The position numbers and the translations under genes are program-made. A DNA stretch of 64,000 nucleotides from Eubacteriales bacterium. Its GTDB lineage: Bacteria; Bacillota; Clostridia; Oscillospirales; SIG627. Below the pieces are notes generated by a model. That model was not told where the DNA came from. It saw only the letters and a program-made list of their open reading frames with translations, and made no database searches. The stretch spans positions 74,796 through 138,795 of the forward strand of contig JAZQMO010000015.1 of assembly GCA_045543495.1 (NCBI GenBank), in the 5' to 3' direction. Of the stretch, positions 5,730 through 27,127 are shown one piece after another (position 1 is the stretch's first letter; each line of letters starts with the position of its first letter).

Positions 5730-6370
5730 TTTTCAGCCTCCGTAGAAAGTTGGGAGGAAAGACTGGATAAAATTCTTTCCATAGCTTCTGTTTTGAATTT
5801 AAAGCTGGATTTGTTTGCAATCAATCTTGCACTGATGGGAACCACATCCTCAATCACTTCCAGCGCATTTTCCTTCAAGGTGGTTCCTGTCTCCACGATA
5901 TCCACAATCACATCGGTCAAGCCCAAGATAGGGGCAATTTCAATGGATCCGTTCAAGTGAACGATATCAATATCTCTTCCTCTGCCACGGAAGTAATCCT
6001 TTGCGATATTGGAAAACTTTGTAGCAACACGAAGGGTACGGGAAGCATCATCCCGAAAACCGACGGGAGCCGCTACGGCCATTTTACAAATTCCGGTTTT
6101 CAGATCAAGCAGCTCATATACATCGGGTGCGTATTCCAAAAGAATATCCTTTCCTGCAACACCGATATCCGCAACACCGCGCTCCACGTAAATGGATACA
6201 TCGGAAGGCTTGACCCAAAAATAGCGAACCCCGCAGGATTCATTTTCAAAAATAAGCTTTCGGGTATTCTCCATCACCTGAGGGCACTCAAAGCCCGCTT
6301 TTGCAAACATGGAATACACTCTCTCACCAAGACGGCCCTTTGGCAGTGCAATGTTTAACATATTACTCAA
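5726..6370 (-). CDS. hisG: ATP phosphoribosyltransferase, short (HisZ-dependent) form
   Basis: 214 aa. Contains LNIALPKGRL and DIVETGTTLKEN. Its short length and the adjacent hisZ indicate the short form. Overlaps hisD by 4 nt. Confidence 0.9.
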   Translation of the reverse strand: MSNMLNIALPKGRLGERVYSMFAKAGFECPQVMENTRKLIFENESCGVRYFWVKPSDVSIYVERGVADIGVAGKDILLEYAPDVYELLDLKTGICKMAVAAPVGFRDDASRTLRVATKFSNIAKDYFRGRGRDIDIVHLNGSIEIAPILGLTDVIVDIVETGTTLKENALEVIEDVVPISARLIANKSSFKFKTEAMERILSSLSSQLSTEAEK

Positions 6371-7481
6371 CGCTCTTCACCCCACTGTCACACAATTCAA
6401 ACAATTTACGGTAACGCAATTTTTTCGGTATCACTTTTTGACATACAACCGTCTCAAATTCTTCTCTCAGGGCTTTCACCGCTTTTTCCACATGGGATAC
6501 GGAATCAATATCGCTGTAAAGCAAAACGGCATCCACATCGTATTCCTTTTTTTCGGATAAAATCCCCTGCAAAGCATCAAGATAAACGGCAAAACCGATT
6601 GCCCCGCCTCGGCACCCCATTTTCTCCATCAGACGGTCATACTGACCTCCTGACAAAATGCCGCTTGGCACGCCCTCAACAAAGCCCTTGAATACAATTC
6701 CGTTATAGTAATCCGTATGGTTCACCACGGAAAAATCAAGGTTGATCATATCTCCAAAGCCTTCTTGGGACAGAGAGAGATAAAGATCGTTTAAAAAAGC
6801 AACCTGATCAAAAAACACAGTATTGCGGAAGGTGGAAATCAATTTCGGCATTACGCTGTCAAAATGGCCGTAGGTGGAAACCAAAGTGCAAAGCAATTCG
6901 GTCTTATTCTCGGGAACCAAGCACTTTTTGGTAATATCACGGATTTCGTGAAGATTCTTCTTCCCCACCGCCTCAAAAATACTTTTTTTGGTTTCATTAT
7001 CGATCCCAAGTGAATGGATCACATCGGAAAGGAGACCAAAATGAGAAAGATCCAAAACAGATCGATCAGAAAAGATGCGAAGGCTTTTGGCGGCAAGCAA
7101 CAAAACCTCATAAATATCGTACTGACCGACACATCCCATGCTTTCAATGCCGATCTGCTTGATCTCCTTAAAGCCGCCGCTTCGGTCTGATACACGGTAT
7201 ACGTTTTCATCATAAAACACCTTGGAAACGTATTTTCCCTCTTCCCTGAAATTTTTAATGATGGAGAGGGTCACGTCAGGCTTCATGGCAAGAAGCTTTC
7301 CGTTGGTATCGGTAAACGTAATAATGCCGTCAGAAATCAAAAAGTCCTTATTTCTGACATACAGGTCATACTCCTCAAACTTACTCATTTTAAATTGTGA
7401 GAAGCCATAGTTTTCAAACAGGTTGCGAAGCAAAAACTCTGCCTTTTCGCTACCGTTGATTCTGAAATTACAGGTATTCAT
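6363..7481 (-). CDS. hisZ: ATP phosphoribosyltransferase regulatory subunit (HisRS paralog)
   Basis: 372 aa with a class-II aaRS-like core. Overlaps hisG by 8 nt and lies directly upstream of hisG. Confidence 0.85.
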   Translation of the reverse strand: MNTCNFRINGSEKAEFLLRNLFENYGFSQFKMSKFEEYDLYVRNKDFLISDGIITFTDTNGKLLAMKPDVTLSIIKNFREEGKYVSKVFYDENVYRVSDRSGGFKEIKQIGIESMGCVGQYDIYEVLLLAAKSLRIFSDRSVLDLSHFGLLSDVIHSLGIDNETKKSIFEAVGKKNLHEIRDITKKCLVPENKTELLCTLVSTYGHFDSVMPKLISTFRNTVFFDQVAFLNDLYLSLSQEGFGDMINLDFSVVNHTDYYNGIVFKGFVEGVPSGILSGGQYDRLMEKMGCRGGAIGFAVYLDALQGILSEKKEYDVDAVLLYSDIDSVSHVEKAVKALREEFETVVCQKVIPKKLRYRKLFELCDSGVKSVE

Positions 7482-7484
7482 AGA

Positions 7485-7775
7485 TCACCGATTCTCCTCA
7501 AGCTTTGAAATGGCATTCAAGTAACCGCCGCTTCCATAAGATATGCACTTATTCACACGGCTGATGGTTGCAGTGCTCACACCGGTTTTTCGATTGATTT
7601 CCTGATAGTTGGTTCCGTTTTTCAAAAGGATCGCAACCTCAAGGCGTTGGGACATATCCATAATTTCCTTAATTGTACAAAGATCCTCTAAAAACAAATA
7701 GCAGTCCTCCACGGTTTTCATTTCGGACAAAACCTTCATCAAACGATCGGTTGATTCATTATGCCAATTGGTCAT
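7485..7775 (-). CDS. YerC/YecD-type TrpR-family DNA-binding protein, candidate his regulator
   Basis: 96 aa. The pattern EDCYLFLEDLCTIKEIMDMSQRLEVAILL...YQEINRKTGVSTATISRVNKCISYGSGGY matches the YerC/YecD TrpR-like family. It is the first gene of the his transcription unit. RBS gaagggaga. Confidence 0.8.
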   Translation of the reverse strand: MTNWHNESTDRLMKVLSEMKTVEDCYLFLEDLCTIKEIMDMSQRLEVAILLKNGTNYQEINRKTGVSTATISRVNKCISYGSGGYLNAISKLEENR

Positions 7776-7855: not shown

Positions 7856-7895
7856 AAAAAGATGCGGGTCTTGGTCGGATCCGCATCTTTTTTTG
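7856..7895. terminator. Bidirectional-looking rho-independent terminator after the TIM-barrel/acyl-CoA-ligase gene
   Basis: Stem gatgcgg(g)tc / ga(t)ccgcatc, flanked by an A-run (7856-7860) and a T-run (7888-7895). It is the only obvious intrinsic terminator, other than the T-box terminators, between 21.7 kb and the his promoter. Confidence 0.75.
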
Positions 7896-7896
7896 A

Positions 7897-10401
7897 TTAT
7901 GCATCCAAATTCAGCTTCTTTGCAGCGTCTTCACGCATTTTGTATTTTAAGATCTTTCCGGCTGCATTCATGGGGAAGCTTTTCACAAACTCTACATAAC
8001 GAGGAACCTTGTGGCGTGCCATACTGGCCGCAACGAAGGACTTCATTTCCTCTTCTGTCATCGTTTCCCCATCCTTAAGGATGATGCAAGCCATAATCTC
8101 TTCTCCGTACTGCTTATCGGGAACTCCGATAACCTGCACATCACTGACCTTGGGATTGGTGTAAATAAACTCTTCGATCTCCTTGGGGTAAATATTTTCA
8201 CCGCCACGGATGATCATATCCTTCAGTCTCCCCGTGATCAGATAATTTCCTTCGGGTGTTCTGCAAGCAAGGTCACCGGTGTGAAGCCATCCATCGGCAT
8301 CAATGGTGGAAGCTGTGGCACCGGGCATTTTATAATAGCCCTTCATCAGATTGTAGCCTCTTGCAACAAATTCACCGTTTACACCGTCAGGACAATCCTC
8401 TCCCGTTTCGGGATCAATGATTTTACACTCCACATTGGCAAAAGCGCTTCCAACGGTTTCCGTTCTAACTTCAAGAGAATCGTAGTAGCTACTCATAGTG
8501 CAACCCGGGCTTGCTTCCGTTTGACCGTAAACCGAAACGATCTCCTTCATATTCATAACCTCGGTAGCCTTTTTCATCAAATCAGCGGGACAGTTTGCAC
8601 CTGCCATAATACCGGTACGAATGTGGGAGAAATCCGTTTTTTCAAAATCGGGGTGCTGCATCATAGCAATAAACATAGTAGGAACGCCGTTAAAGGTGGT
8701 AATATGCTCATTATGTACGCAGGCCAAAGCAGGCTTGGGAGAAAAATAAGGCAAGGGACACATAGTAGCACCGTGAGTCATAGCCGCGGTCATAGAAAGA
8801 ACCATACCGAAGCAGTGGAACATAGGCACCTGGATCATCATACGGTCAGCCGTGGAAAGATCCATATGGTCGCCGATATATTTACCGTTGTTGACTACAT
8901 TGTAATGAGTCAGCATAACACCCTTGGGAAAGCCTGTGGTGCCCGAGGTATACTGCATATTGCAAACATCGTCCTTATGAACGGCGGCAGCCATTCTGCG
9001 CACCTCTTCAAGAGGCGTTTGGGAGGCTCTTTCCAAAGCCTGATTCCATGTCATACAGCCCTTCTGACGAAAGCCAACCGTAATAACATTGCGAAGGAAG
9101 GGCAAACGCTTGGTATGAAGAGGCTCTCCTGCCTTGAGAGTTTCCAGCTCAGGACAGAGCTCGGCAATGATCTTACCGTAGTGAGTGTCTTTTGCTCCTT
9201 CAGTCATGATCAGGGTGTGAGTATCTGACTGACGGAGCAGATACTCTGCTTCGTGAATCTTGTATGCGGTATTCACCGTTACAAGCACCGCCCCGAGTTT
9301 TACCGTTGCCCAGAAGGCGATAAACCACTGGGGTACATTGGATGCCCAAACCGCAACATGAGTACCCGCTTTAACACCGAGATCAATCAATGCGCGAGCG
9401 AAGGTATCTACATCGTCACGAAATTCCTCATAGGTTCTGGTATAGTCAAGTGTTGTATATTTGAAGGCATACTGATCAGGAAATTCTTCCACCATACGGT
9501 CCAATACATCCGAGAAGGTGGCATCGATCAAAAGATCCTTTTTCCAAACAAACTGCCCTGTGTGTGCTCTGTTATAATAGAGATTTTTCTGTCCTCGCGA
9601 GGTATCGCCAAACTGCTTCATAAAGCCGACAAACTGGGCAAAGATGATCTCCATATCGTCCAGCTCCTCGCACCAAACGGGATCCCAGACCAAAGATACA
9701 TAGCCATCAAAATTCACAGAGCGAAGGGCAAGCATCATTTCCGAAATGGGAAGCTCCCCTTCCCCTGCCAGACAATACTCGATCTGATCGCCCATTTTTT
9801 TGGCGTCGATAAGCTGTACATGGCGAACATAAGCGCCCAGGTTCTTAATGACCTCTTCCGCACTTTCTCCAAAGCCAAAATACGCGGCAGACATATTCCA
9901 AAGAGCGGCAACATGATCGCTGGCAAAGCGCTCCAAAAGGTCTCTCAGAAGCTTGGTGTCACAGAAGGGGCCGTTTGTCTCGATCAAAAAGCTTACGCCC
10001 TGTTTTTCCGCAACGGGTAAAAACTCTGAAAGAAGATTAAAAATGTGATCGCAGACCGATTCCTTATCGCTTTGGTCATACGCTCTCAAACGGATACAGG
10101 GAATGTGCAGATTGGCACAGAATTCAAGACAGCTTTTGATCTCAATCTTCATTTGCTCGGCTTGAGAAACATTTCCCAGATCGCAAATGGTATCAATGCA
10201 GGGGATCTCAAGCTTCTTTTCATACAAACGGCGAAGGGTTGCAGCAGCGGCATAATCGTGAAAAGCGCCGTCCTTATCCGTAAACAGGCGGTTATAAATG
10301 TTGTGAAGCTCAATTCCTTGGAACCGCAAATCTTCGGCAATATTACAAAAATCTTCGAAGGTACTGTCATGCCAGCCCTTTGTGGAAAATGAAAGCTTCA
10401 T
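7897..10401 (-). CDS. Fusion protein: N-terminal xylose-isomerase-like TIM barrel (sugar-phosphate isomerase/epimerase superfamily) plus C-terminal AMP-forming acyl-CoA ligase
   Basis: 834 aa. Residues about 1-275 (MKLSFSTKGWHDSTFEDFCNIAEDLRFQGIELHN...) resemble AP_endonuc_2/xylose-isomerase-like TIM barrels. Residues about 290-834 carry the adenylate-forming motifs YTSGTTGFPKGVMLTH, GYGQTE-like VYGQTEAS, WLHTGD and GKILK. Confidence 0.8.
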   Translation of the reverse strand: MKLSFSTKGWHDSTFEDFCNIAEDLRFQGIELHNIYNRLFTDKDGAFHDYAAAATLRRLYEKKLEIPCIDTICDLGNVSQAEQMKIEIKSCLEFCANLHIPCIRLRAYDQSDKESVCDHIFNLLSEFLPVAEKQGVSFLIETNGPFCDTKLLRDLLERFASDHVAALWNMSAAYFGFGESAEEVIKNLGAYVRHVQLIDAKKMGDQIEYCLAGEGELPISEMMLALRSVNFDGYVSLVWDPVWCEELDDMEIIFAQFVGFMKQFGDTSRGQKNLYYNRAHTGQFVWKKDLLIDATFSDVLDRMVEEFPDQYAFKYTTLDYTRTYEEFRDDVDTFARALIDLGVKAGTHVAVWASNVPQWFIAFWATVKLGAVLVTVNTAYKIHEAEYLLRQSDTHTLIMTEGAKDTHYGKIIAELCPELETLKAGEPLHTKRLPFLRNVITVGFRQKGCMTWNQALERASQTPLEEVRRMAAAVHKDDVCNMQYTSGTTGFPKGVMLTHYNVVNNGKYIGDHMDLSTADRMMIQVPMFHCFGMVLSMTAAMTHGATMCPLPYFSPKPALACVHNEHITTFNGVPTMFIAMMQHPDFEKTDFSHIRTGIMAGANCPADLMKKATEVMNMKEIVSVYGQTEASPGCTMSSYYDSLEVRTETVGSAFANVECKIIDPETGEDCPDGVNGEFVARGYNLMKGYYKMPGATASTIDADGWLHTGDLACRTPEGNYLITGRLKDMIIRGGENIYPKEIEEFIYTNPKVSDVQVIGVPDKQYGEEIMACIILKDGETMTEEEMKSFVAASMARHKVPRYVEFVKSFPMNAAGKILKYKMREDAAKKLNLDA

Positions 10402-10403
10402 CC

Positions 10404-11783
10404 TTATACCTCCTCATAAATAATCTTATTCACAGCATTCAAATAGGCACGGATTCCTGCCCCGATAATATCGGTAGACAAGCCATTACCGGAATAAAGC
10501 TTGCCACCTGCTCTCAGTTTCACCAATGCAGAGCCCATTGCTTCTTTTCCTTCGGTAACAGACTGAATTTGGAAATCATCCAATTCATAGTGATAACCGA
10601 TGATCTGATCAATGGCACGGAAGGCGGCATCCACGGGACCGTCACCGATGCAAATCCCCTGAATGACCTCGTCCCCCTTCAAAAGGGAGATCTGAGCACT
10701 GGAGGAAATGATATTACCGTTATTGATCACATAGCTCTGAAGCTTATAGGTAGCGGGAACCTGCAAGGCAACACTTGCCACCATAGCATCCAATTCCTTA
10801 CTGCCGACACGCTTCTTTTGTGCAACGCGCAAGAATTCCTCGTAGACTCTTTTCTGATCCTCCTCAGACAGATCATATCCAAGCTTTGCAACTGCAACGT
10901 TTACGGCACTCTGATCGTCATTCTGATCCAAATAAATGGATTGGTCTTCCCCACCGCCCACAGTCATAGCGGATTTTTCATTTTTTACATTGGTGGTGAC
11001 CCAGCGGATCTGCTTCACAATACGGCTGAGCTCCGTGTAGCGAAGGCCAAAGGAAAAGCCGTTCTTTTCCCCACAGTTTTTGATGAGAAGCGCAAAGGTT
11101 TCCAAGGGAGTAACAGAGCAGTTTACATCGGTCTTGACAACGGTTGCACCGCTCTTTGCAGCCAAAATTGAGCCTGCAGCGGCAAGTCCGTTTTTATTAT
11201 CGCAGCGTACTCCGACAGGTACGGAAATATCAGAAGAAATTTCAGAAATGAAACCGGCGAAAGCATCGGGAAGCAGTTCTGCGGCAGAATCACAAAGAGA
11301 AACCTGAGTTGCTCCTGCCTCTACTGCGATCCCAATGATCTTTTTCAGAAAATCGCTTTCAGCACGGGTCGCATCCACGGCACAAAATTCAACCATCTGC
11401 ACCTTTTCTTTGGCGGCTTGGATCAGTGTCTTCACCCACTCCAGCATCTTATCAGGCTTTTTATGGGCAGAATATTCCATTCCAACGGGAGAAACGGGCA
11501 ATTCAACACGAATCATACCGTTTTCATTTCCTGCCAGTGCCGCAAGAGCATTTTCAAGACTTGAAAGATCCGAGCCACAGGCCACGGATAAAATACTGTT
11601 TTTCACAAAGGAAGAGCAGGTGCGAACAAACAAGCAATCTGCACGTACATTTTTAATTTCGGGAAGCTCGATCACATCAACTCTTAGTTTTTCAAGCTGA
11701 CGGGCAATTTCAAGCTTTTCCTTAAAACCAAAAACCTCATCCTCCGTGCAAAGCGTCGTGTCTGCAATTTTGATCTGCATCAT
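10404..11783 (-). CDS. 2-isopropylmalate synthase-like protein with degenerate active site and conserved C-terminal LeuA regulatory/dimerisation domain
   Basis: 459 aa. The HMGL-like barrel aligns to LeuA, but the catalytic motifs are replaced: DTTLRDGEQ becomes DTTLCTEDE, HxH(D/N)DLG becomes RCDNKNG, and GERAGN is absent. The C-terminus (GDGPVDAAFRAID...VKLRAGGKLYSGNGLSTDIIGAGIRAYLNAVNK) is a well-conserved LeuA_dimer-type domain. Confidence 0.75.
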   Translation of the reverse strand: MMQIKIADTTLCTEDEVFGFKEKLEIARQLEKLRVDVIELPEIKNVRADCLFVRTCSSFVKNSILSVACGSDLSSLENALAALAGNENGMIRVELPVSPVGMEYSAHKKPDKMLEWVKTLIQAAKEKVQMVEFCAVDATRAESDFLKKIIGIAVEAGATQVSLCDSAAELLPDAFAGFISEISSDISVPVGVRCDNKNGLAAAGSILAAKSGATVVKTDVNCSVTPLETFALLIKNCGEKNGFSFGLRYTELSRIVKQIRWVTTNVKNEKSAMTVGGGEDQSIYLDQNDDQSAVNVAVAKLGYDLSEEDQKRVYEEFLRVAQKKRVGSKELDAMVASVALQVPATYKLQSYVINNGNIISSSAQISLLKGDEVIQGICIGDGPVDAAFRAIDQIIGYHYELDDFQIQSVTEGKEAMGSALVKLRAGGKLYSGNGLSTDIIGAGIRAYLNAVNKIIYEEV

Positions 11784-11800
11784 AATTCTTCTCCTTTTCG

Positions 11801-12060
11801 AAAAAATAAAAAGTCCCTGAGGATAAACCTCAGGGACGAAACAATCCGCGGTACCACCCTGATTACCGCAACATGTGCGGTCATCTCAAGAGTTCTAACA
11901 AACTCATCACCATGATAACGGGGCTCGCCGTAGATGCTTACTGAATTTGGGCACCTCTGCTCCGGAATGAGACTTTGTTTGATCTACCTATTGTCTCGCA
12001 CCAAACGACAACTCTCTGCAAGGGATTTCACAAACAAATAATTCCTTCTCTGCATTTGAT
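11801..12060 (-). promoter_or_regulatory. T-box riboswitch leader, specifier read as CUC (Leu)
   Basis: Minus-strand RNA carries a Stem I AGAGAG bulge, a distal-loop TGGTGCGA, the T-box sequence AATCAGGGTGGTACCGCG (11847-11864) and the terminator gtccctgagg...cctcagggac plus a U-run (11801-11837). The specifier-loop context is ...aaaguCUCAuucc-ggagca, with the codon at 11969-11971. Confidence 0.85.
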
Positions 12061-12066
12061 TTTGGG

Positions 12067-12096
12067 ATTATAACACAAAACGTATGGATTTGTCAA
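12067..12096 (-). promoter_or_regulatory. Promoter driving the Leu T-box leader
   Basis: Minus strand: TTGACA (12091-12096), 18-nt spacer, extended -10 TGtTATAAT (TATAAT at 12067-12072). It lies directly after the oxidoreductase gamma-subunit stop. Confidence 0.7.
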
Positions 12097-12113
12097 CTGT
12101 TTTGCAAAACTTT

Positions 12114-12647
12114 TTAATAATTTGCACCCAGCTTCATGGCCTTCATATTGACCTCGATCATGTCGATCTTCTTGGGAGGGATGACCTTGTTCAGGGTCTT
12201 TACAACCAACTCCTCGTCAAACTCGCCGAGAACAGCAAGGATCTTACCCACCAGAATCATATTGGCAAGGTTGCCAAATCCGTTTTCACCTGCAAGCTTC
12301 GTTGCAGGCACATAATAAACCTGAACATCCTGGCGGTTGACCTTGCGTTCCACCAGAGAAGAGTCAACAAAGATCACGCCGCCGGGAGCAACGCTCTCTT
12401 CAAACTTATCCAAGGAGGGCAGGTTCATCGCCACGAGAATATCGGGCTTTGATACAATGGGAGAACCAACGGGTTCATCACTCACGATAACACTGCAGCT
12501 TGCAGTACCGCCACGCATTTCGGGGCCGTAGGAAGGAAGCCAGCTAACCTCTTTATCCTCAATCAATCCTTTGTAGGCAAGCATTTTGCCGGCAAACAGG
12601 ATACCCTGACCACCGAAACCGGAAAGAAGAATCTGTTTGGTACTCAT
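12114..12647 (-). CDS. 2-oxoacid:ferredoxin oxidoreductase, gamma subunit
   Basis: 177 aa. Contains [17 protein letters not shown], typical of OFOR gamma subunits. Overlaps the beta subunit by 4 nt. Confidence 0.85.
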
Positions 12648-13399
12648 TTTGTCTCCTCCTTTGCACTGCGATCCTTATAAACGCCTAAGGGATAATAAGG
12701 AATCATTTTTTCGTCGATCCATTCCAAGGCCTTCTGAGGTGTCATACCCCAGTTGGTGGGACAGGAGGACAGAACTTCGATCAAAGAGAAGCCCTTCTTA
12801 TCAAGCTGATTCTGGAAAGCCTTTTTAATGGCCTTCTTAGCATTCTTAATATTCTTTACATTGTTTACTGTGACACGCTCCAAATATTCGGGGCCATCCA
12901 GCTGAGAAAGCATTTCGCAAACCTTGATGGGGAATCCGCAAGCATTGGTATCTCTGCCGTAGGGAGAGGTTTGGGTCACCTGTCCGGGGAGAGAGGTAGG
13001 AGCCATCTGACCGCCGGTCATACCGTAAATTGCATTGTTGATAAAGATAATGGTGATATTTTCATTTCTGGCGGCAGCGTGAACTGTTTCAGCCATACCA
13101 ATAGAGGCAAGGTCGCCGTCTCCCTGATAAGTAAACACCACGTGGTTTTCGGGATCACTTCTCTTGACACCGGTGGCCACAGCGGGTGCTCTGCCGTGGG
13201 CAGCCTCGATCATATCGCAATTAAAGTAATTATATGCCATAACGGAGCATCCGACGGGTGCAACACCGATCGTGCGTCCTTCAATGCCGAGTTCGTCAAT
13301 AACCTCGGCCACCAAACGGTGAACGATACCGTGGGTACAGCCGGGGCAATAGTGCAAAGCAACATCAGCCATTGCTTTGGGTTTTTCAAATACTACCAT
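12644..13399 (-). CDS. 2-oxoacid:ferredoxin oxidoreductase, beta (TPP-binding) subunit
   Basis: 251 aa. Contains YCPGCTHGI and the GDGDLASIG...NNAIYGMTGGQ TPP motif. Confidence 0.9.
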   Translation of the reverse strand: MVVFEKPKAMADVALHYCPGCTHGIVHRLVAEVIDELGIEGRTIGVAPVGCSVMAYNYFNCDMIEAAHGRAPAVATGVKRSDPENHVVFTYQGDGDLASIGMAETVHAAARNENITIIFINNAIYGMTGGQMAPTSLPGQVTQTSPYGRDTNACGFPIKVCEMLSQLDGPEYLERVTVNNVKNIKNAKKAIKKAFQNQLDKKGFSLIEVLSSCPTNWGMTPQKALEWIDEKMIPYYPLGVYKDRSAKEETK

Positions 13400-13409
13400 A
13401 TTTCACACC

Positions 13410-14471
13410 TCACTTTTGTGCATCCAAAATTGCCTGCAGAACCTGCTCGGGAGACGGGATCATACCGCCGACACGGTTGCAGAGAGTAACGGGAACCTTA
13501 CAATTGGAAGCAAGTCTGACATCTTCAATCATCTGACCCATGCTGAGCTCAACGGAAATGATCTCTTTTACGTGCTCAGCAGCCTTCTCGAAGGGAGCCT
13601 TGGGGAAAGGCCAAAGAGTAATGGGACGGATGAGACCAACCTTGATCCCCTGCTTTCTGGCTTCGTTGATCGCATTCTTGGAAACACGGGCAGCAATACC
13701 GAAAGCGGCAACGCAGATCTCTGCATCATCCATCATATACTCTTCATAAAGAGTTTCCTTCTCTTCAATGGTCTTATATCTTTCGTATCTTTTGAAGTTT
13801 TCTCTCTCAAGGGCATCGGGCTCCAGGAAAAGAGAGTTCACGATGTTATGCTCGCGCTCCAATTTGGTACCGGTGGTAGCCCAAGGCTTTTCGGGAGAAG
13901 GCTTAACATCAAAATCAAGGCTGACAGGCTCCATCATCTGACCCATGGTACCGTCTGCCAGGATCATGGCAGTCATACGGTAGGTATCAGCAAGCTCAAA
14001 TCCGCGAACGGTAAGCTCGGCCATTTCCTGCACGGAGCTGGGTGCCAAAACGATCATACGGAAGTCACCGTGACCGCCGCCCTTGGTGGCCTGAAAATAA
14101 TCGGACTGGCTGGGCTGAATACCGCCGAGACCGGGGCCGCCACGCTGAACGTTCACAACCAGTGCGGGCAGATCAGCACCTGCGAGATAGGAAAGACCCT
14201 CGCTCTTAAGAGAAATTCCGGGGCTTGAGGAAGAGGTCATAACTCTCTTTCCGGTAGAGGAAACGCCGTAAACCATATTGATGGCGGCAATTTCACTTTC
14301 CGCCTGCAGGAAGGTACCGCCGATCTTAGGCATTTTCTTTGCCATATAAGCAGCAACCTCAGTCTGAGGAGTAATGGGATAACCGAAGTAATGACGGCAG
14401 CCTGCCACGATGGCGGCCTCCGCAATGGCTTCGTTTCCTTTCATCATAATCTTTTCTGCCATTTTATTCAC
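13410..14471 (-). CDS. 2-oxoacid:ferredoxin oxidoreductase, alpha subunit (VorB/KorA-like)
   Basis: 353 aa. Contains KGNEAIAEAAIVAGCRHYFGYPITPQTE, QAESEIAAINM, RGGPGLGGIQPSQSDY and GGGHGDF. From memory, this pattern is often annotated as VorB-type. Substrate cannot be read from the sequence. Confidence 0.85.
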   Translation of the reverse strand: MNKMAEKIMMKGNEAIAEAAIVAGCRHYFGYPITPQTEVAAYMAKKMPKIGGTFLQAESEIAAINMVYGVSSTGKRVMTSSSSPGISLKSEGLSYLAGADLPALVVNVQRGGPGLGGIQPSQSDYFQATKGGGHGDFRMIVLAPSSVQEMAELTVRGFELADTYRMTAMILADGTMGQMMEPVSLDFDVKPSPEKPWATTGTKLEREHNIVNSLFLEPDALERENFKRYERYKTIEEKETLYEEYMMDDAEICVAAFGIAARVSKNAINEARKQGIKVGLIRPITLWPFPKAPFEKAAEHVKEIISVELSMGQMIEDVRLASNCKVPVTLCNRVGGMIPSPEQVLQAILDAQK

Positions 14472-14674
14472 CTCTCTACCTTAATTACACAGTCGGGACA
14501 CATCATTGCACAGAAGGCACACCCGACACAAAGAGATTGATCTGTAATTTCTGCGGGATGATGGCCCTTCATATTGATCTTGTCAGAAGCAAGACGGATC
14601 AACTTTTTGGGACAGGCATTGACACAAAGCCCGCAACCTTTACAAAAATCGGTTCGAAACGTAAGTTTTGCCAT
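14468..14674 (-). CDS. 2-oxoacid:ferredoxin oxidoreductase, delta subunit (2x[4Fe-4S] ferredoxin-like)
   Basis: 68 aa with two CxxCxxCxxxCP motifs (CKGCGLCVNACP and CVGCAFCAMMCP). Overlaps the alpha-subunit start. Confidence 0.85.
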   Translation of the reverse strand: MAKLTFRTDFCKGCGLCVNACPKKLIRLASDKINMKGHHPAEITDQSLCVGCAFCAMMCPDCVIKVER

Positions 14675-14716
14675 AGAAACTTCTCCTTTAACTATGAATT
14701 TCTATATTGATTGTTC

Positions 14717-15373
14717 TTAATAGTACTTTTTTTGCAGTGCCAGCGGAAATAGAGGCCGGATGGATGGAAGAAGCTCATCAAACAACTCCTCCTTCACGGT
14801 GGTAAAGCAAAGGGGCAATCCTGAAAGCTGAGAAAACTCTTTTGCCTTCTCAAGGGTGGCTAAAACATCCTCTGCCGTGGTTTCTTCCCCAAGGTTAGAA
14901 TTGTTCACAATTCCCGTAAAGCGAATCCCGGAGGCAATTTCCATTTCCCGCATCACCTCTAAAAGGGATTGGGAATCTCGGGTGAGAGGCCTATAAAAAT
15001 TCACCACCAAAAGCATTTCATAAGAGTTTTCCTTCAATAGCTCAGGGGTCAATCTTCCGAGCGCCAAGGCTCCTCGGTCATCACCGCCAATATCGAGAAT
15101 AAAGCTTGTTTCCTTATCGTCAACAACGCAGTACATATCCTGCGGAAGAGACGGAATGTCCACATTGGTATTGGCATATTCCGAGGAAATGAGACGGATT
15201 CCCGCTTCTTTCAATTCTTGTGCACTGTCCTTGGTACGGAAATAAGGATTGACAATATCAAGATCCGCAATCGCAACCTCTTTTTCTTTCTTCAAATGAA
15301 AAGCAAGATTGATTGCAACATTGGTCTTGCCGCTGCCGTAATGACCCGCAAGGATCACAACTCTTTTAGCCAT
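14717..15373 (-). CDS. P-loop NTPase (SIMIBI class, MinD/Mrp/CooC-like), function unknown
   Basis: 218 aa. Has an N-terminal Walker A (VVILAGHYGSGKTNVAINLA) and a Walker-B-like ILDIGGDD. Overlaps the ilvE stop by 8 nt. Confidence 0.6.
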   Translation of the reverse strand: MAKRVVILAGHYGSGKTNVAINLAFHLKKEKEVAIADLDIVNPYFRTKDSAQELKEAGIRLISSEYANTNVDIPSLPQDMYCVVDDKETSFILDIGGDDRGALALGRLTPELLKENSYEMLLVVNFYRPLTRDSQSLLEVMREMEIASGIRFTGIVNNSNLGEETTAEDVLATLEKAKEFSQLSGLPLCFTTVKEELFDELLPSIRPLFPLALQKKYY

Positions 15374-16445
15374 TGCAAACCTTTACACACCAAGCGTGGG
15401 TATCCTCAATCTTACCCCACTGAATACCGGTGAGCTGATCGTAAAGCTTTTGGGTCAATTCGCCGATCTTGTTGTCACAAACAACATATTCATTTCCCTT
15501 GTAGAAAAGCTGACCGATGGGGGAAACAACGGCGGCGGTGCCGGTACCCCAAGCCTCTTCCAGCTTGCCGTTTGCAGCAGCCTCAAAAAGCTCATCCACG
15601 CTGATCAGTCTCTCTTCTACGGTGTATCCCCATTCCTTGAGAAGCTCAACACAGCTCTTTCTGGTAATACCGGGAAGAACGGAGCCGGTCAACTCGGGAG
15701 TGATGATCTTGCCGTCGATCTTGAACATAACGTTCATCGCACCGACTTCTTCAATATACTTTCTTTCCACACCGTCAAGCCAAAGCACCTGAGTATAGCC
15801 GTTTTTCTCGGCTCCCTCCCCTGCTCTGAGGGTTGCGGCATAGTTACCGCCGCACTTGGCATAACCGGTACCGCCACGAACCGCACGAACATCCTGAGAC
15901 TCAATGGCGATCTTAACGGGGTTAATACCCTCGGCATAGTAAGCACCGACGGGAGAACAGATGATAGCAAAAGTTGCATTCTTTACGGCGTGAACTCCGA
16001 GGTGAGGATCGTTACCGTAAAGGAAAGGACGGATGTAGAGGCTTGTGCCATCGGAATGAGGCACCCAATCCTTTTCCAGTTCAACCAAAGTCTTGAGAAT
16101 ATCAAGGCAACCCTCCTCATCCAAAAGAGGCAGGCAGAGACGCTCGGCACTGTTGTTCAATCTCTTGATATTTTCCATGGGGCGGAACAGCTTAATGGAG
16201 CCGTCCTTGGTGCGATATGCCTTCATACCTTCAAAGATCTCTACGCCGTAGTGCAGAACAGTGGCAGCGGGATGAAGGGGAATCGGACCGAAGGGAACGA
16301 TTCTGGCATCATGCCAGCCCTCTTCCACACTGTAATCCATCAAGAACATATGATCGGTAAAGATCTTGCCGAATCCAAGCTTGGACTCATCAGCGGGCTT
16401 TGCCTTCAAAGAGGCAGTTTTTTCAATGGAAATGGAATACTTCAT
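15366..16445 (-). CDS. ilvE: Branched-chain amino acid aminotransferase
   Basis: 359 aa class-IV aminotransferase. Contains FGKIFTDHMF, YGVEIFEGMKAYR, GGTGYAKCGGNYA and TGTAAVVSPIG. Confidence 0.9.
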   Translation of the reverse strand: MKYSISIEKTASLKAKPADESKLGFGKIFTDHMFLMDYSVEEGWHDARIVPFGPIPLHPAATVLHYGVEIFEGMKAYRTKDGSIKLFRPMENIKRLNNSAERLCLPLLDEEGCLDILKTLVELEKDWVPHSDGTSLYIRPFLYGNDPHLGVHAVKNATFAIICSPVGAYYAEGINPVKIAIESQDVRAVRGGTGYAKCGGNYAATLRAGEGAEKNGYTQVLWLDGVERKYIEEVGAMNVMFKIDGKIITPELTGSVLPGITRKSCVELLKEWGYTVEERLISVDELFEAAANGKLEEAWGTGTAAVVSPIGQLFYKGNEYVVCDNKIGELTQKLYDQLTGIQWGKIEDTHAWCVKVCNG

Positions 16446-16465
16446 AACTCTTCTCCTTTTTTATA

Positions 16466-18754
16466 TTAAAGCATGTTTCTTTGAATTTTACCGCTTACAG
16501 TCTTGGGAAGCTCATCACAGAACACCACAAGACGGGGATACTTATAGGGAGCGGTATGCTCTTTGACATAATTCTGAATTTCTTTTTTCAATTCCTCGCT
16601 GGGCTCGGTACCCTTAGTTAGAACGATGCTTGCTTTGACGATCTGACCACGAACCTCATCAGGTGCGGCAGATACGCCACATTCCAATACATAAGGTAGC
16701 TCCATAATGACGCTTTCAATTTCAAACGGGCCGATACGGTAGCCGGAGGATTTAATCACGTCGTCAGCTCTTCCCACATACCAGAAGAAGCCGTCCTCAT
16801 CACGCCAAGCAATATCGCCGGTGTGATAATAACCGTCACGAATGGCCTCTGCGGTCTTTTCGTCGTCATTGTAATAGCCCACAAATAAGCCACAGGGAGC
16901 ACCGTTTTTCAGATTGATGACAACCTCACCCGATTCACCGGTTGCAACAGGCTTTCCATCGCTGTCTAAAAGCTCAACATCATAGATGGGAGCGGGCTTA
17001 CCCATAGAACCGATCTTATGAGAAGCACCGATCATATTACCGATGATCATGGTGCTTTCCGTCTGCCCGAAGCCCTCCAGGATCTGAAGGCCTGTAGCCT
17101 TTTCAAACTGACGGTAAACCTCGGGGTTCAAGGCTTCACCTGCTGTCGTCATATGACGAACAGAGGAAAGATCGTATTTGGTAATATCCTGCTTCACCAG
17201 CATACGAAGCATGGTTGGAGGTGCACAGAAGGTGGTGATTTGATACTTGGCAAACATCGGAAGGATCTTGGAAGCATCAAAACGATCAAAGTCATAAACA
17301 AAGATCGGTGCTTCGCACAGCCACTGACCGTACATCTTGCCCCACATAGATTTTGCCCAGCCGGTATCGGAAATGGTAAAGTGCAGTCCATCCGGCTCAA
17401 CGGAATGCCAATACTTTGCAGTATGGAAATGTCCGAGAGGGTACTTATGATTATGTGCGGCGATCTTGGGATAGCCCGAGGTGCCCGAAGTAAAGAACAT
17501 CAAAAGCAGATCGTCTCCGCAGGGAGACTCCTCGGTACGGTTAAAGTGAGAGCTGTAAAGAGGATATTCCTCATTAAAGCTTCTCCAGCCTTCTTTTTCT
17601 CCGTTGACCAAAAGCTTAAATTCCAATTCAGGGTGCTTAGCGGCGGCCTTTTCTGCCTCATTGGCAACTTCCCCGTCAGCCGTGCAAATAATACCACGAA
17701 CCCCTGCGGCACCAAAGCGATAATCAAGATCATGCTCAAGGAGCTGATTGGGTGCGGGGATGGCAACGGCACCAAGCTTATTCAGGCCAAGCATGGCAAA
17801 CCAGAACTGATAGTGGCGCTTTAAGATCAGCATGACCTTATCACCCTTTTTAATACCAAGGGACTTAAAATAGTTGGCACACTGATTGGAAGCCTTCTTA
17901 ATATCCTTAAAGGTAAAGCGACGCTCGGTCATATCCTCGGAAATGTGAAGCATCGCAAGCTTCTCGGGCTCACGGGAGGCAAGCTCATCGATCAGATCAA
18001 AGGCAAAGTTAAAGGATTCGGTATTCTTAAACGCAATGGAGGTAGGAGTACCGTTTTCATCCTCTTTCGTATCAATGAACTTATGATAAATGCGTTCCTT
18101 GGTGTCCTTTGTCAGCTTCTTCACACCGCTGATCGCCTTTTTGGGACTCAGCTCGGGAATGGGTTCACCGGTGGGATTGAGAACAATGGCGTAGAACACA
18201 CAGTCCTGCTCCTTCACGGCGATCATACCGTGAGGGGTATCACTGTCAAAATAAATACTGTCACCGGGGCCGAGGATCTCCTGATGCTCACCCACCTGAA
18301 CTAAAAGATGCCCTTCCACCACAAGGTCAATCTCCTGACCTGCGTGGGTTGTCAATTCAATATCACGGTTCTGTGCATTTTCGTCAAATTTGCTAATTAC
18401 AAACAGGGGCTCCGCAATACGGTTCTGAAAAGCATAGGCAAGGTTATAATAGGTCATACCGTGTGCATTGGCAATTTCCTGTCCTTCACCGGAGCGAGTC
18501 ACGGTATAGGAATTCAAGGTGGGGCTGTGACCCTCGATGATATCCGTTACGTTTACATTCAGGGCCAAGGCACATCGATAAATAAAGGCAAAGTTTAAGT
18601 CACTTCTTCCCTCTTCACAGTCCTTATATTCCTCAATGCTCACGCCTGTTTTGATGGCCATTTCTTCGCAAGTCAAGCCTTCGATCTCTCTCAGGTCACG
18701 AATTCTGGCGGCCATTTCTTGAATTTTGTATTCAAGTCCTGTAATCTGTTTCAT
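16466..18754 (-). CDS. Fusion protein: XRE-type HTH plus cupin (PuuR-like regulator module) plus medium-chain (Macs/ACSM-like) acyl-CoA synthetase
   Basis: 762 aa. Residues about 10-70 form the HTH (IRDLREIEGLTCEEMAIKTGVSIEEYKDCEEG). Residues about 110-195 form the cupin (THAGQEIDLVVEGHLLV...GDSIYFDSDTPHGM). The remainder is an adenylate-forming enzyme with FFTSGTSGYPK, GFGQTES, YHTGD, GRADDVIKSSGYRIGPFEIES and SGKIQR. Confidence 0.85.
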   Translation of the reverse strand: MKQITGLEYKIQEMAARIRDLREIEGLTCEEMAIKTGVSIEEYKDCEEGRSDLNFAFIYRCALALNVNVTDIIEGHSPTLNSYTVTRSGEGQEIANAHGMTYYNLAYAFQNRIAEPLFVISKFDENAQNRDIELTTHAGQEIDLVVEGHLLVQVGEHQEILGPGDSIYFDSDTPHGMIAVKEQDCVFYAIVLNPTGEPIPELSPKKAISGVKKLTKDTKERIYHKFIDTKEDENGTPTSIAFKNTESFNFAFDLIDELASREPEKLAMLHISEDMTERRFTFKDIKKASNQCANYFKSLGIKKGDKVMLILKRHYQFWFAMLGLNKLGAVAIPAPNQLLEHDLDYRFGAAGVRGIICTADGEVANEAEKAAAKHPELEFKLLVNGEKEGWRSFNEEYPLYSSHFNRTEESPCGDDLLLMFFTSGTSGYPKIAAHNHKYPLGHFHTAKYWHSVEPDGLHFTISDTGWAKSMWGKMYGQWLCEAPIFVYDFDRFDASKILPMFAKYQITTFCAPPTMLRMLVKQDITKYDLSSVRHMTTAGEALNPEVYRQFEKATGLQILEGFGQTESTMIIGNMIGASHKIGSMGKPAPIYDVELLDSDGKPVATGESGEVVINLKNGAPCGLFVGYYNDDEKTAEAIRDGYYHTGDIAWRDEDGFFWYVGRADDVIKSSGYRIGPFEIESVIMELPYVLECGVSAAPDEVRGQIVKASIVLTKGTEPSEELKKEIQNYVKEHTAPYKYPRLVVFCDELPKTVSGKIQRNML

Positions 18755-18771
18755 TCAACTCTCCATTTTCC

Positions 18772-19040
18772 GGGACAAAAAAGCACTCGTCCCAAAGGTA
18801 TTTCCTTGAGACGAGTGCGAAAACACCCGCGGTACCACTCAAATTGCTGCAAAGCAGCCACTCAGGATCCAACAATCCGTATGCATTAACGCAGCAATCA
18901 CGGAGAAGTTCTACTCCCTTTCGGTTTCTTCCTCTCAGCTCAGAAGCTACAATCACGGGATCTGTATCCAATGGCTTGCACCGACCGCCATCTCTCTGGG
19001 GAACAAATTTCCGAAAAACTCTTCCTCAACGCCTTTAATA
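18772..19040 (-). promoter_or_regulatory. T-box riboswitch leader, specifier read as GUA (Val)
   Basis: Minus-strand RNA carries AGAGAG, a distal-loop CGGTGCAAG, the T-box sequence AATTTGAGTGGTACCGCGGG (about 18826-18845) and the terminator gcactcgtc...gacgagtgc plus a U-run (18776-18818). The specifier context is ccg-ugauuGUAg-cuuc-ugagc, with the codon at 18948-18950. Confidence 0.85.
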
Positions 19041-19047
19041 CCTTATT

Positions 19048-19076
19048 ATTGTAACATCAAAAGAAGCAGATGTCAA
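19048..19076 (-). promoter_or_regulatory. Promoter driving the Val T-box leader
   Basis: Minus strand: TTGACA (19071-19076), 17-nt spacer, TGtTACAAT (TACAAT at 19048-19053). It starts about 24 nt after the upstream paralog's stop. Confidence 0.7.
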
Positions 19077-19099
19077 GTTTTTTATTGAATTTTCAATGT

Positions 19100-21364
19100 T
19101 TACAGCTTATTGCGCTGGATTTTTCCGCTGATGGTCTTGGGAAGCTCGTCACGGAATACCACCACACGGGGATATTTGTAGGGAGCGGTATGCTCTTTGA
19201 CATAGCGCTGAATCTCTTTTTTCAGCTCTTCCGTAGGCTCTGTTCCCTTGGTCAACACGATGCTCGCCTTCACCACCTGACCTCTTACCTCATCGGGCAC
19301 GGCAGAAACACCGCATTCCAATACATAAGGAAGCTCCATGATCACGCTTTCGATCTCAAACGGCCCGATACGGTAACCGGAGGATTTGATCACGTCATCC
19401 ACACGACCGACATACCAGAAATATCCGTCCTCATCACGCCAAGCAGTATCACCGGTGTGATAAAGCCCGTCGTGCCAAGCCTCGGTCGTTTTTTCGGTAT
19501 CCTTATAGTACTCTTTGAAAAGACCGCAAGGAATGCTCTTATCGGTGTGAATTACGATCTCGCCCACCTCACCGGTTGCAACGCTGTTGCCGTCGGGATC
19601 CACAATGTCAAGATCAAACTGAGGAGACGCCTTACCCATAGAGCCGATCTTGGGGGTATCCCCTGCAAGATTTGCAATCACCAGGGTGGTTTCGGTCTGG
19701 CCGAAGCCCTCCATAATTTCAAGGCCCGTTGCCTCCTTAAAGCGCTTGAACACCTCAGGGTTCAAGGCTTCGCCCGCCGTTGTCATATGATGGATCGAGG
19801 AAAGATCGTACTTAGACAGATCGCCGCGGATCAACATACGAAGCATAGTAGGAGGAGCACAGAAGGTCGTAATGTTATAACGGGCAAACATGGGAAGGAT
19901 ATCGTTTTCATCAAAACGGTCAAAGTCATATACAAATACCGCACCCTCGCAAAGCCACTGACCGTAAAACTTACCCCAAAGGGATTTGCCCCAACCGGTA
20001 TCGGAAATGGTAAGGTGAAGACCTTCTCTTTCACAGCAATGCCAATACTTTGCCGTAACAAAATGGCCCAATGCATAGGTGTGCTTATGAGACGCCATTT
20101 TGGGATTTCCGGTGGTGCCGGAGGTAAAGAACATCAAGGCTGCTTCATCCCCACCGGGGGTATCCTCGGAGCGAACGAACTTGCGGGAGAAGAGACGGAA
20201 TTCTTCATCAAAATCGTGCCAATTGTCCTTCTTACCGCCAACCAGGATCATGGTTTTCATTTCGGGACATTCTTTCGCAGCTGCCTCGGCAATATCGGAA
20301 ACATCTCCGTCAGCGGTACAAACGATGGCAGAAACACCTGCGGCACGGTAACGGTATACAAAATCGTGCTCTTTAAGCTGATTGGTTGCAGGGATGGCGA
20401 CGGCTCCGATCTTGTGAAGGGCGACCATTGCAAACCAGAACTGATAGTGGCGCTTTAACACCAGCATTACCTTATCCCCTTTCTTAATTCCGAGGGAGGT
20501 AAAGTAGTTGGCGCACTGATTGGAATAATGCTTGATATCACGGAAGGTGAAGCGACGCTCCGTTTTATTTTTATCCAAATGGAGCATGGCAAGCTTATCG
20601 GGATAAGCATTGGCGATCTCGTCTACGATATCAAAACCAAAATTGAACGTATCGGTATCGGTAAAATCAATCTTTTTCAGAGAACCGTTTTCATTCTCTT
20701 CCAACTTGACAAATTTTTCACAGATCAGCTTTTGAGAATTCTTGGCGGCTACCAGATTCTTTACCACCGAGCCTTCCTTTACTTCATCACCGGGAAGAAC
20801 CACGGCACAGAACACACAGTCCTTTCCGTCCACAGCGATCATACCGTGGGGAGTGGAGCTGTTGTAATAAATACTGTCCCCTTCCTCCAGAACCTCCGTG
20901 TGACTGCCAACCTGAACCTTCAATTTACCGCTGATCACAAGATCAAATTCCTGACCGCTGTGAGTAGCAAGGTTGATGGGCTTGTTTTGCAGGGAAGCAT
21001 CGTATTCGTAGCGAACCCAATAGGGCTCGGCGATCTTATCACGGAATTTGGGGGCAAGGTTTTGAATGGTGATGCCATCCTCCTTCGCCGTTTGCTGCCC
21101 CTGCCCTTTACGGGTGACAGTGTAAGAAGAAAGAAGTGCGCTCTTTCCTTCCAAAAGATCGGTAATGCCGATTCCAAACTCAAGGCAGCATTTATGCAAA
21201 AATGAAAAAGGAAAGTCCAGTTGACCCTTTTCGTACTTCTCATACTCGTCGACACAAACCTCAGTACGCTTTGCCATTTCTTCAATGGAAAGTCCGGAGA
21301 TTTCTCTCATTTCGCGAATTCGAAGCGCGACCTCATTCAATTTTTCAACAGATAGTGTAGACAT
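19100..21364 (-). CDS. Fusion protein: XRE-type HTH plus cupin plus medium-chain acyl-CoA synthetase (paralog of 16466-18754)
   Basis: 754 aa from ATG 21364 (MSTLSVEKL...), preceded by the RBS aaaggagga. The longer ORF-track start at 21493 lies inside the T-box leader. It has the same domain order and motifs as its paralog (FFTSGTTGNPK, GFGQTET, YHTGD, SGKIQR), and the C-terminal part is nearly identical. Confidence 0.85.
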   Translation of the reverse strand: MSTLSVEKLNEVALRIREMREISGLSIEEMAKRTEVCVDEYEKYEKGQLDFPFSFLHKCCLEFGIGITDLLEGKSALLSSYTVTRKGQGQQTAKEDGITIQNLAPKFRDKIAEPYWVRYEYDASLQNKPINLATHSGQEFDLVISGKLKVQVGSHTEVLEEGDSIYYNSSTPHGMIAVDGKDCVFCAVVLPGDEVKEGSVVKNLVAAKNSQKLICEKFVKLEENENGSLKKIDFTDTDTFNFGFDIVDEIANAYPDKLAMLHLDKNKTERRFTFRDIKHYSNQCANYFTSLGIKKGDKVMLVLKRHYQFWFAMVALHKIGAVAIPATNQLKEHDFVYRYRAAGVSAIVCTADGDVSDIAEAAAKECPEMKTMILVGGKKDNWHDFDEEFRLFSRKFVRSEDTPGGDEAALMFFTSGTTGNPKMASHKHTYALGHFVTAKYWHCCEREGLHLTISDTGWGKSLWGKFYGQWLCEGAVFVYDFDRFDENDILPMFARYNITTFCAPPTMLRMLIRGDLSKYDLSSIHHMTTAGEALNPEVFKRFKEATGLEIMEGFGQTETTLVIANLAGDTPKIGSMGKASPQFDLDIVDPDGNSVATGEVGEIVIHTDKSIPCGLFKEYYKDTEKTTEAWHDGLYHTGDTAWRDEDGYFWYVGRVDDVIKSSGYRIGPFEIESVIMELPYVLECGVSAVPDEVRGQVVKASIVLTKGTEPTEELKKEIQRYVKEHTAPYKYPRVVVFRDELPKTISGKIQRNKL

Positions 21365-21390
21365 AGCATGATCCTCCTTTTTAAGAAAAT

Positions 21391-21656: not shown

Positions 21657-21663
21657 TGCTAGG

Positions 21664-23426: not shown

Positions 23427-23432
23427 ACTCCA

Positions 23433-27125: not shown

Positions 27126-27127
27126 AT

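Follow-up and report, generated by a model that had tools for sequence, protein, structure and literature searches.

In the classical leucine pathway, LeuA, the isopropylmalate synthase (IPMS), is both attenuated transcriptionally and feedback-inhibited, while in histidine biosynthesis HisZ, an inactive histidyl-tRNA-synthetase paralogue, is the regulatory subunit of short-form HisG (ATP phosphoribosyltransferase). The IPMS/MAMS metal is held by Asp90, His288 and His290, and His388, stacked on Tyr399 and positioned by Glu227, is the general base; the invariant DRE-TIM Arg and Thr257 also count among the catalytic features (PMC11532901), and in M. tuberculosis IPMS the substitutions R80A/K and E218A abolish activity (PMC10464499). 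Ruminococci form leucine via carboxylation of isovalerate (Allison 1962, 1966, as cited in PMC7356843), and rumen bacteria use 2-methylbutyrate to form isoleucine and isobutyrate to form valine (Allison and co-workers, as cited in PMC7356843; also PMC10658910). Here we analyzed a 64,000-nucleotide stretch of an Eubacteriales bacterium genome (assembly GCA_045543495.1, contig JAZQMO010000015.1, positions 74,796 to 138,795), hereafter the window, in which the gene at 10404-11783 encodes a LeuA-like protein. For this gene we observe loss of the catalytic residues, family-wide conservation, purifying selection, a leucine T-box, an operon structure, invariant synteny with a TIM-barrel/acyl-CoA-ligase fusion and linkage to genes for 2-oxoisovalerate:ferredoxin oxidoreductase (VOR) and branched-chain aminotransferase (BCAT). 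We are highly confident that the protein is a non-catalytic LeuA paralogue with a retained function, and we consider it likely to work with the fusion; the full model, in which it would be the leucine-feedback subunit of an isovalerate-CoA ligase in an isovalerate-carboxylation route to leucine, we regard as evenly balanced between right and wrong.

The gene and the domains of its product are laid out as follows:

10404..11783, minus strand: LeuA-like pseudoenzyme gene, 459 aa, ATG start, analyzed with Pfam, NCBIfam, alignments to E. coli and PDB LeuA, AlphaFold2 (AF2) and Foldseek
11019..11783, minus strand: HMGL-like/DRE-TIM barrel, residues 1-255, catalytically dead (C12, T13, V136, S166, R193, D195; GIGER loop deleted)
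10806..11018, minus strand: shortened linker, residues 256-326, with LeuA subdomain I (catalytic His/Tyr) deleted and residues 271-281 predicted disordered
10407..10805, minus strand: C-terminal LeuA_dimer regulatory domain (Pfam PF08502, 99.1 bits)

The 459-aa protein is colinear with LeuA, with an HMGL-like domain (PF00682, 98.9 bits) spanning residues 5-221 and a LeuA_dimer domain, which Pfam names ‘allosteric (dimerisation)’, at residues 327-454 (model positions 3-130 of 131). It falls below the NCBIfam LeuA equivalog cut-offs (NF002086, 257 bits vs 532; TIGR00973, 222 bits vs 599). A first-pass annotation of the window had proposed that every LeuA catalytic motif is replaced, and the strings that it quoted are all present: TTLCTEDE at residues 9-16, CDSAA at 164-168, RCDNKNG at 193-199, NCSVTPLET at 221-229 and, in the C-terminal domain, ALVKLRAGGKLYSGNGLSTDIIGAGIRAYLNAVNK at its claimed place. 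Mapping the catalytic positions onto the experimentally characterized E. coli LeuA (b0074) and onto PDB LeuA chains gave concordant alignments. The invariant DRE-TIM Arg of RDGEQ (E. coli R13) is C12 and the metal ligand D14 is T13; the remainder of RDGEQ is altered as well, with a 4-aa deletion taking out the Q. The E of EDA is V136, the T of PDT is S166, and the metal ligands H202 and H204 are R193 and D195. The GIGER segment of the GIGERAGN loop is deleted, and so is a stretch of about 29 residues, AFAHSSGIHQDG among them, that in LeuA holds the linker-subdomain motif AFxHxSGIHQDG...Y with its catalytic His and stacking Tyr; there is no His between residues 108 and 397. Since the whole protein contains only two His, H107 and H398, an HxH motif cannot exist in any register, and a shifted set of catalytic residues is thereby ruled out. 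All of the catalytic features listed in PMC11532901 are, in these alignments, substituted or deleted.

This loss extends across the family. By a word-indexed search we recovered more than 120 clusters that share 64-100% identity and are nearly all 457-461 aa long, of which the few named ones bear ‘hypothetical protein [Clostridia bacterium]’. When 50%-identity representatives were searched exhaustively with HMMER, 288 proteins matched at E <= 1e-30; among the 150 top-ranking matches, about 140 belong to the LeuA-like family (35-62% identity, mostly 455-480 aa, some shorter), and the canonical TLRDG/HCHDD motifs occur in only one matched sequence, P0264. In the short database proteins P0230, P0232, P0235, P0247, P0251 and P0269, a family-type LeuA_dimer domain is joined to partial TGT, MFS, 7TMR-HDED or Laminin_G_3 domains; we judged these to be, most likely, assembly or gene-call chimeras and rejected them as real architectures. 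Among 106 full-length family representatives, the Asp/His/His triad is present in none, and neither His position holds a His. At the DRE-TIM Arg position 34 have R, 26 have K and 18 have C, and the columns of the former active site are hypervariable (R/K/C, E/Q/N/K/S/D, E/Q/S/C/R, S/A/N). The proposed loss of the LeuA catalytic machinery is thus borne out both in the window and in all 106 representatives.

The regulatory domain, by comparison, is the best-conserved part of the protein, as had been suggested, with a mean family identity to the window protein of 61% vs 35% for the barrel. G380, G382, P383, G417, G434, D438, A450 and N452 vary little or not at all, and the family retains the GDGPxDA loop (G380-A386), which makes up the leucine site of LeuA; G417 aligns with E. 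coli LeuA G462, a position linked to feedback resistance. For 14 pairs of sequences 80-95% identical, pairwise dN/dS (NG86) was 0.04-0.12 in the barrel and 0.007-0.09 in the regulatory domain. Although dS is partly saturated, constraint on the two domains is clear, and therefore the dead barrel keeps some non-catalytic role. The AF2 model of the protein has a pLDDT of 88.3, with disorder only at residues 271-281; its best Foldseek PDB matches are M. tuberculosis LeuA structures, the leucine-bound entry 3fig included, and its barrel superposes on the LeuA barrels 3ewb and 3eeg with a root-mean-square deviation (rmsd) of 1.7 A. A phmmer search with the C-terminal domain of the window protein found no PDB homologue, and the family profile of that domain gave a weak match to 3f6g (E = 4.5e-5). 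The earlier description of a protein in which only the regulatory domain is intact therefore goes too far, as the barrel keeps the LeuA fold and is itself under constraint. By descent the protein belongs to the LeuA/DRE-TIM lineage; as a catalytic member of that lineage it fails.

To place the gene in its genomic context, we scanned species-representative genomes and kept the best 80 of 590 matches, a total that may include true LeuA genes. All 80 loci come from metagenome-assembled genomes, mostly Oscillospirales (Acutalibacteraceae, Oscillospiraceae, Ruminococcus, Faecousia) with a minority of Lachnospiraceae, Christensenella, Synergistaceae and Coriobacteriia, and, judging by record titles and isolate names, most are from rumen, gut and faecal samples. 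The open reading frame (ORF) of the LeuA-like gene is intact in every locus examined.

Transcription of the gene in the window is framed by the following elements:

12067..12096, minus strand: sigma-70-type promoter, TTGACA-18 nt-TG-TATAAT, 12/12 matches, 8 nt 5' of the T-box start
11829..12059, minus strand: T-box leader (RF00230), specifier CUC at 11969-11971, 114.2 bits vs gathering score 93
11813..11837, minus strand: intrinsic terminator of the T-box, stem of 10 bp (7 of them G-C) and T-run, overlapping the 3' end of the T-box model
7856..7892, unstranded: terminator hairpin with A- and T-run flanks, closing the bicistronic unit

The RF00230 match covers model positions 1-219, the full length, and a ribosome-binding site lies between the T-box terminator and the LeuA-like gene. 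Reading the specifier of homologous leaders from the same MAFFT column and from Rfam alignments, we found CUC in 44 and CUG in 8 (n = 52); the overlapping UCU reading turns into CCU in some of them. That the specifier varies only at the wobble base and always within Leu codons supports a T-box specific for leucine. At the other end of the gene, the TAA stop (10404-10406) is followed by GG and then by the ATG of the fusion gene (10399-10401), leaving a 2-nt gap, and the GAGGAGG ribosome-binding site of the fusion sits within the last codons of the LeuA-like gene. The promoter, T-box, terminators, 2-nt gap and embedded ribosome-binding site together define a bicistronic unit, whose two genes are co-transcribed and probably translationally coupled; given its own promoter and its leucine-specific T-box, the unit would be expected to be transcribed when tRNA-Leu is uncharged. 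Both the leucine T-box and co-transcription across the 2-nt gap had been part of the first-pass annotation, and the comparative data add specifiers that read CUC or CUG in 52/52 leaders and a gene order kept wherever both genes occur.

The second gene of the unit (10401-7897) encodes a fusion protein of 834 aa with two parts:

9547..10401, minus strand: N-terminal xylose-isomerase-like TIM barrel (TIM_N), residues 1-285, Pfam AP_endonuc_2, putative tetrad positions E141, N169, Q196 and V238
7897..9546, minus strand: ANL-family acyl-CoA ligase, residues 286-834, AMP-binding and AMP-binding_C domains, core motifs intact

We found the fusion directly 3' of the LeuA-like gene in all 77 loci that have both, the two genes being at most 5 nt apart in 55 loci and overlapping by 4 nt in 19, and the same pairing was recovered when the search started from a fusion homologue. 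The ligase domain has strong Pfam matches (PF00501 AMP-binding, 314.6 bits; PF13193 AMP-binding_C, 65 bits), matches PDB ligases and, as read from the translation, keeps the core motifs TSGTTGFPKG, YGQTE, TGD, GRLKDMIIRGGENIYP and the C-terminal GK; against NCBIfam PRK12583 it scores 650 bits, under the cut-off of 832. Mean column conservation is 0.83 for the ligase vs 0.57 for TIM_N. TIM_N itself (AP_endonuc_2, 61 bits; AF2 pLDDT 82) resembles generic sugar isomerase/epimerase barrels in Foldseek (TM 0.70-0.76, 13-20% identity). Of 65 relatives, 26 have the full putative metal tetrad E-D-H-E; in the window it reads E-N-Q-V, three of the four putative ligands being lost, and elsewhere the changes are independent (for example K141 and V/I/Q238). 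TIM_N looks like a second, partly degenerate pseudo-barrel, and the LeuA-like protein and the fusion thus make up a module of one well-conserved catalyst and two degenerate barrels.

An Amidohydro_2 gene (about 270 aa, with no NCBIfam match) lies directly 3' of the fusion, often overlapping it, in about 28/59 loci (L002, at 13914-14726; L004-L008, L010, L011, L013, L085 and others). It is missing from the window and from its closest relative, L001. Among these related loci, the integrity of the TIM_N metal site and the presence of Amidohydro_2 show no correlation.

We also compared evolutionary distances between the proteins as partial correlations, with VOR alpha and beta distances serving as a phylogeny proxy (n = 35), and relied on effect sizes, as permutation p-values were all small and non-discriminating. 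The strongest of these links was between the LeuA-like barrel and TIM_N (partial r = 0.57), while TIM_N with its own ligase domain and the regulatory domain with the ligase each gave 0.41; VOR-gamma controls ranged from 0.06 to 0.23, with the LeuA-like protein itself at 0.21. The co-variation of barrel and TIM_N is no more than suggestive of a link to the fusion. The first-pass annotation had named either the fusion or the oxidoreductase as the possible target of regulation, and between these two the invariant adjacency and the co-varying TIM-barrel distances favor the fusion.

Upstream of this unit on the same strand lies a branched-chain pathway neighborhood:

12114-12647, minus strand: VOR gamma (Pfam/NCBIfam)
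12644-13399, minus strand: VOR beta (Pfam/NCBIfam)
13410-14471, minus strand: VOR alpha/VorB (VorB model, 544 bits vs cut-off 399)
14468-14674, minus strand: VOR delta ferredoxin (Pfam/NCBIfam)
14717-15373, minus strand: CbiA/ParA-like P-loop protein (Pfam)
15366-16445, minus strand: BCAT (equivalog, 480 bits vs cut-off 307)
16466-18754, minus strand: helix-turn-helix (HTH)-cupin/MbcS-like acyl-CoA synthetase, behind the Val T-box
18804-19038, minus strand: Val T-box, specifier GUA at 18948-18950 (Rfam alignment)
19100-21493, minus strand: second HTH-cupin/MbcS-like acyl-CoA synthetase, behind the Ile T-box
21421-21657, minus strand: Ile T-box, specifier AUC at 21567-21569 (86.2 bits, under the gathering score of 93)

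Together with the bicistronic unit these genes form a supercluster (7856-21657, minus strand) in which three T-boxes (Ile, Val and Leu) each precede a different acyl-CoA ligase and in which VOR and BCAT are shared, and the Ile/Val/Leu pattern is seen again in related loci. The Ile T-box is below the default Rfam threshold, yet it matches the model over its full length and its AUC is kept in homologous loci, and it looks genuine. Across loci, the leaders of MbcS-like ligases carry mostly ATC (about 20) or GTA (about 10), by a heuristic reading that includes some misreads. The VOR/BCAT/ligase block stands in one of three layouts relative to the LeuA-like pair (on the same strand and either upstream or downstream, or upstream and divergent); because the association persists in three gene orders, we take block and pair to be functionally linked. 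The position of VOR and BCAT nevertheless varies among loci, and in some they are not within 10 kb, whereas the adjacency of the fusion is invariant. Neither leuB nor a canonical leuA was found in the window or in the 80 loci, a result that covers the loci only and is silent on whole genomes.

The two HTH-cupin ligases resemble MbcS (442 bits, NCBIfam), whose characterized form activates 2-methylbutyrate and isobutyrate, and isovalerate poorly (PMC10026030). Both carry an N-terminal XRE-type HTH and a cupin fused to the ligase, and in L036, L045, L055, L056 and L070 a 182-aa gene of its own encodes the HTH-cupin part. By analogy with the LeuA-like subunit of the Leu arm, the HTH-cupin module may regulate the Ile and Val arms by sensing a ligand or binding DNA. 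The CbiA/ParA-like NTPase gene is kept between the MbcS-like ligase or BCAT and ferredoxin/VOR in nearly all loci; its product is weakly similar to MrpORP, a carrier of Fe-S clusters, and may function in VOR maturation.

Combining these observations, we propose a model in which the LeuA-like protein and the fusion would form a complex, probably barrel to barrel, and the ligase would convert isovalerate to isovaleryl-CoA. The neighboring VOR would then carry out reductive carboxylation of isovaleryl-CoA to 2-oxoisocaproate, which BCAT would aminate to leucine, and the LeuA-derived subunit would bind leucine and throttle the ligase, either by inhibiting it or by failing to activate it. For the supercluster, the simplest model would be one ligase per branched-chain acid, induced by its cognate uncharged tRNA, with VOR and BCAT in common; in the leucine arm, the ligase would be of another class and would have the LeuA-derived subunit bound to it. 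The salvage route would in this way gain the two-level control, T-box plus feedback, of the classical pathway, with the control point at the ATP-consuming, leucine-specific entry step. The specific proposal that an ANL-family isovalerate-CoA ligase has, as its leucine-sensing allosteric subunit, a pseudoenzyme derived from LeuA is one we advance tentatively, as falling somewhat short of an even chance.

Several points weigh against this model. We infer the binding of leucine, the binding of the fusion and the effect on the ligase from sequence and gene context, and the effector of the regulatory domain is not readable from sequence, the related citramalate synthase domain being one that binds isoleucine. 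Isovalerate, likewise, is a substrate suggested by context, and the ligase reaches no NCBIfam equivalog cut-off. The distance co-variation may be inflated, as both barrels evolve fast, and TIM_N together with Amidohydro_2 could indicate chemistry beyond plain isovalerate activation.

Alternatively, the LeuA-like protein could be a non-catalytic structural or assembly subunit of the fusion that senses no leucine, or that senses another ligand such as 2-oxoisocaproate, isovaleryl-CoA, isoleucine or valine. In that case the C-terminal domain would be there mainly for dimerization, in keeping with Pfam's own label for it. A barrel under purifying selection despite its missing catalytic residues is what a structural subunit would display, and the synteny and coupling point to a complex and are silent on its ligand. 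The most conserved loop and glycines, however, map to LeuA positions that form the effector site or are linked to feedback resistance, and the exclusive control by a leucine T-box suits a leucine logic. We consider this alternative unlikely, while giving it real weight.

Catalysis of a different kind is improbable in our judgment. The LeuA-like protein might still be an enzyme with a new metal-independent or partner-supplied chemistry, acting with TIM_N and, in loci that have it, Amidohydro_2 in a leucine-related pathway; consistent with this, the pocket-lining LeuA residues S98, D137, R140, D165 and D8 persist, the barrel is constrained as judged by dN/dS, about half of the loci have Amidohydro_2 in the operon as a putative third enzyme gene, and a full E-D-H-E tetrad is found in some relatives of TIM_N. 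Yet the former active-site positions are hypervariable in the 106 representatives with no new invariant polar cluster in their place, and the protein lacks two active-site loops as well as the lid subdomain. The TIM_N tetrad has been lost repeatedly, in the window as well, and Amidohydro_2 is optional, so neither is essential to the core of the module.

Still less probable, and very unlikely overall, is a leucine sensor whose target is the VOR complex, BCAT or the MbcS-like ligases. The VOR/BCAT cluster is often adjacent, as such a target would suggest, but that adjacency is variable where the fusion is adjacent in 77/77 loci, and the residual co-variation with VOR-gamma is far from that with TIM_N (0.21 vs 0.57). 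A decaying, functionless leuA pseudogene, which the loss of all catalytic motifs might suggest, is effectively refuted by a family about 140 clusters deep at 50% identity, the conservation seen in 106 representatives, ORFs intact throughout, dN/dS of 0.007-0.12 and a dedicated promoter, T-box and ribosome-binding site.

The first-pass annotation had called the pairing of a leucine-binding pseudoenzyme with a Leu T-box unusual and, to its knowledge, uncharacterized, and our searches agree: we found no dedicated NCBIfam model and no informative database name for the family, and a literature search turned up nothing relevant on an IPMS pseudoenzyme, a bacterial isovalerate-CoA ligase or genes of the carboxylation pathway. 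If the leucine-feedback model holds, this would be, to our knowledge, the first pseudoenzyme of DRE-TIM type and the first case of an acyl-CoA ligase with amino-acid feedback through a dedicated subunit, and a candidate new type of regulation in which an amino-acid-sensing pseudoenzyme subunit acts on an acyl-CoA ligase. With the Ile and Val T-box ligases, VOR and BCAT, it would supply a genetic and regulatory basis for the carboxylation of branched-chain fatty acids to branched-chain amino acids (BCAAs), routes whose physiology was described in ruminococci in the 1960s. The three-T-box cluster would offer gene candidates for the long-known dependence of rumen fiber degraders on isovalerate, isobutyrate and 2-methylbutyrate, of relevance to ruminant nutrition and to the exchange of branched-chain acids and BCAAs in the human gut. 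For annotation, the LeuA look-alike is common in gut and rumen Clostridia, and counting it as leuA would lead pipelines and metabolic models to a false classical leucine pathway.

The window holds several further features outside the supercluster. Just downstream of the unit, a small TrpR-family protein (7485-7775, minus strand) heads a his operon, with a promoter-like site at 7833-7805, and the operon begins with HisZ (6363-7481, minus strand), a classic pseudoenzyme regulatory subunit. A ZMP/ZTP riboswitch (34003-34100, minus strand, 57.5 bits) lies 5' of a purine biosynthesis operon that runs from a purE-like gene (33460-33954) on to FGAM synthase and FTHFS (21744-23426). Long antisense ORFs are found at 10380-11171, 8011-9228 and 22407-27167 on the plus strand, reaching 1586 aa opposite FGAM synthase; these are shadow ORFs, and nothing indicates that they code for proteins.

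Among known systems, the protein is close to LeuA itself (E. coli b0074; M. tuberculosis IPMS 1SR9 and its leucine-bound form 3FIG), with which it shares the order of HMGL-like barrel, helical linker and LeuA_dimer, the barrel geometry (rmsd 1.7 A), the GDGPxDA effector-loop motif and control at the RNA level by leucine availability. It differs in having no metal triad, DRE-TIM Arg, catalytic His/Tyr subdomain or GIGERAGN loop, in scoring under half of the LeuA equivalog cut-offs, and in a gene that is always paired with an acyl-CoA ligase fusion and not with leuBCD. S. aureus MbcS (PMC10026030) is likewise a short branched-chain acid:CoA ligase, and the two HTH-cupin ligases of the cluster are its relatives; the fusion ligase, in contrast, is of another, PRK12583-like subfamily and carries an N-terminal TIM barrel, and MbcS is poor on isovalerate. 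Leptospira CimA (3F6G/3F6H) has a homologous C-terminal regulatory domain, the one reached by our family profile, but is an active citramalate synthase whose effector is isoleucine; because its domain binds isoleucine, the effector specificity of the domain is not to be assumed from homology. The AHAS (acetohydroxyacid synthase) small subunit (IlvN/IlvH) is also a separate, co-transcribed, non-catalytic subunit that, through binding of a branched-chain amino acid, brings feedback to the first BCAA enzyme, although it has an ACT fold, does not derive from LeuA and carries no relic catalytic domain. HisZ offers a functional parallel in being a pseudoenzyme derived from an enzyme that recognizes the same amino acid, encoded beside its catalytic partner and giving end-product sensitivity, which for the LeuA-like protein we infer. 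The fold and ancestry differ, and the HisZ-HisG complex and its histidine feedback are experimentally established where ours are predicted. As with HisZ, the LeuA-like protein is a paralogue of a catalytic family that has no catalytic residues and is under purifying selection, and by this analogy it probably works like the known pseudoenzyme regulatory subunits.

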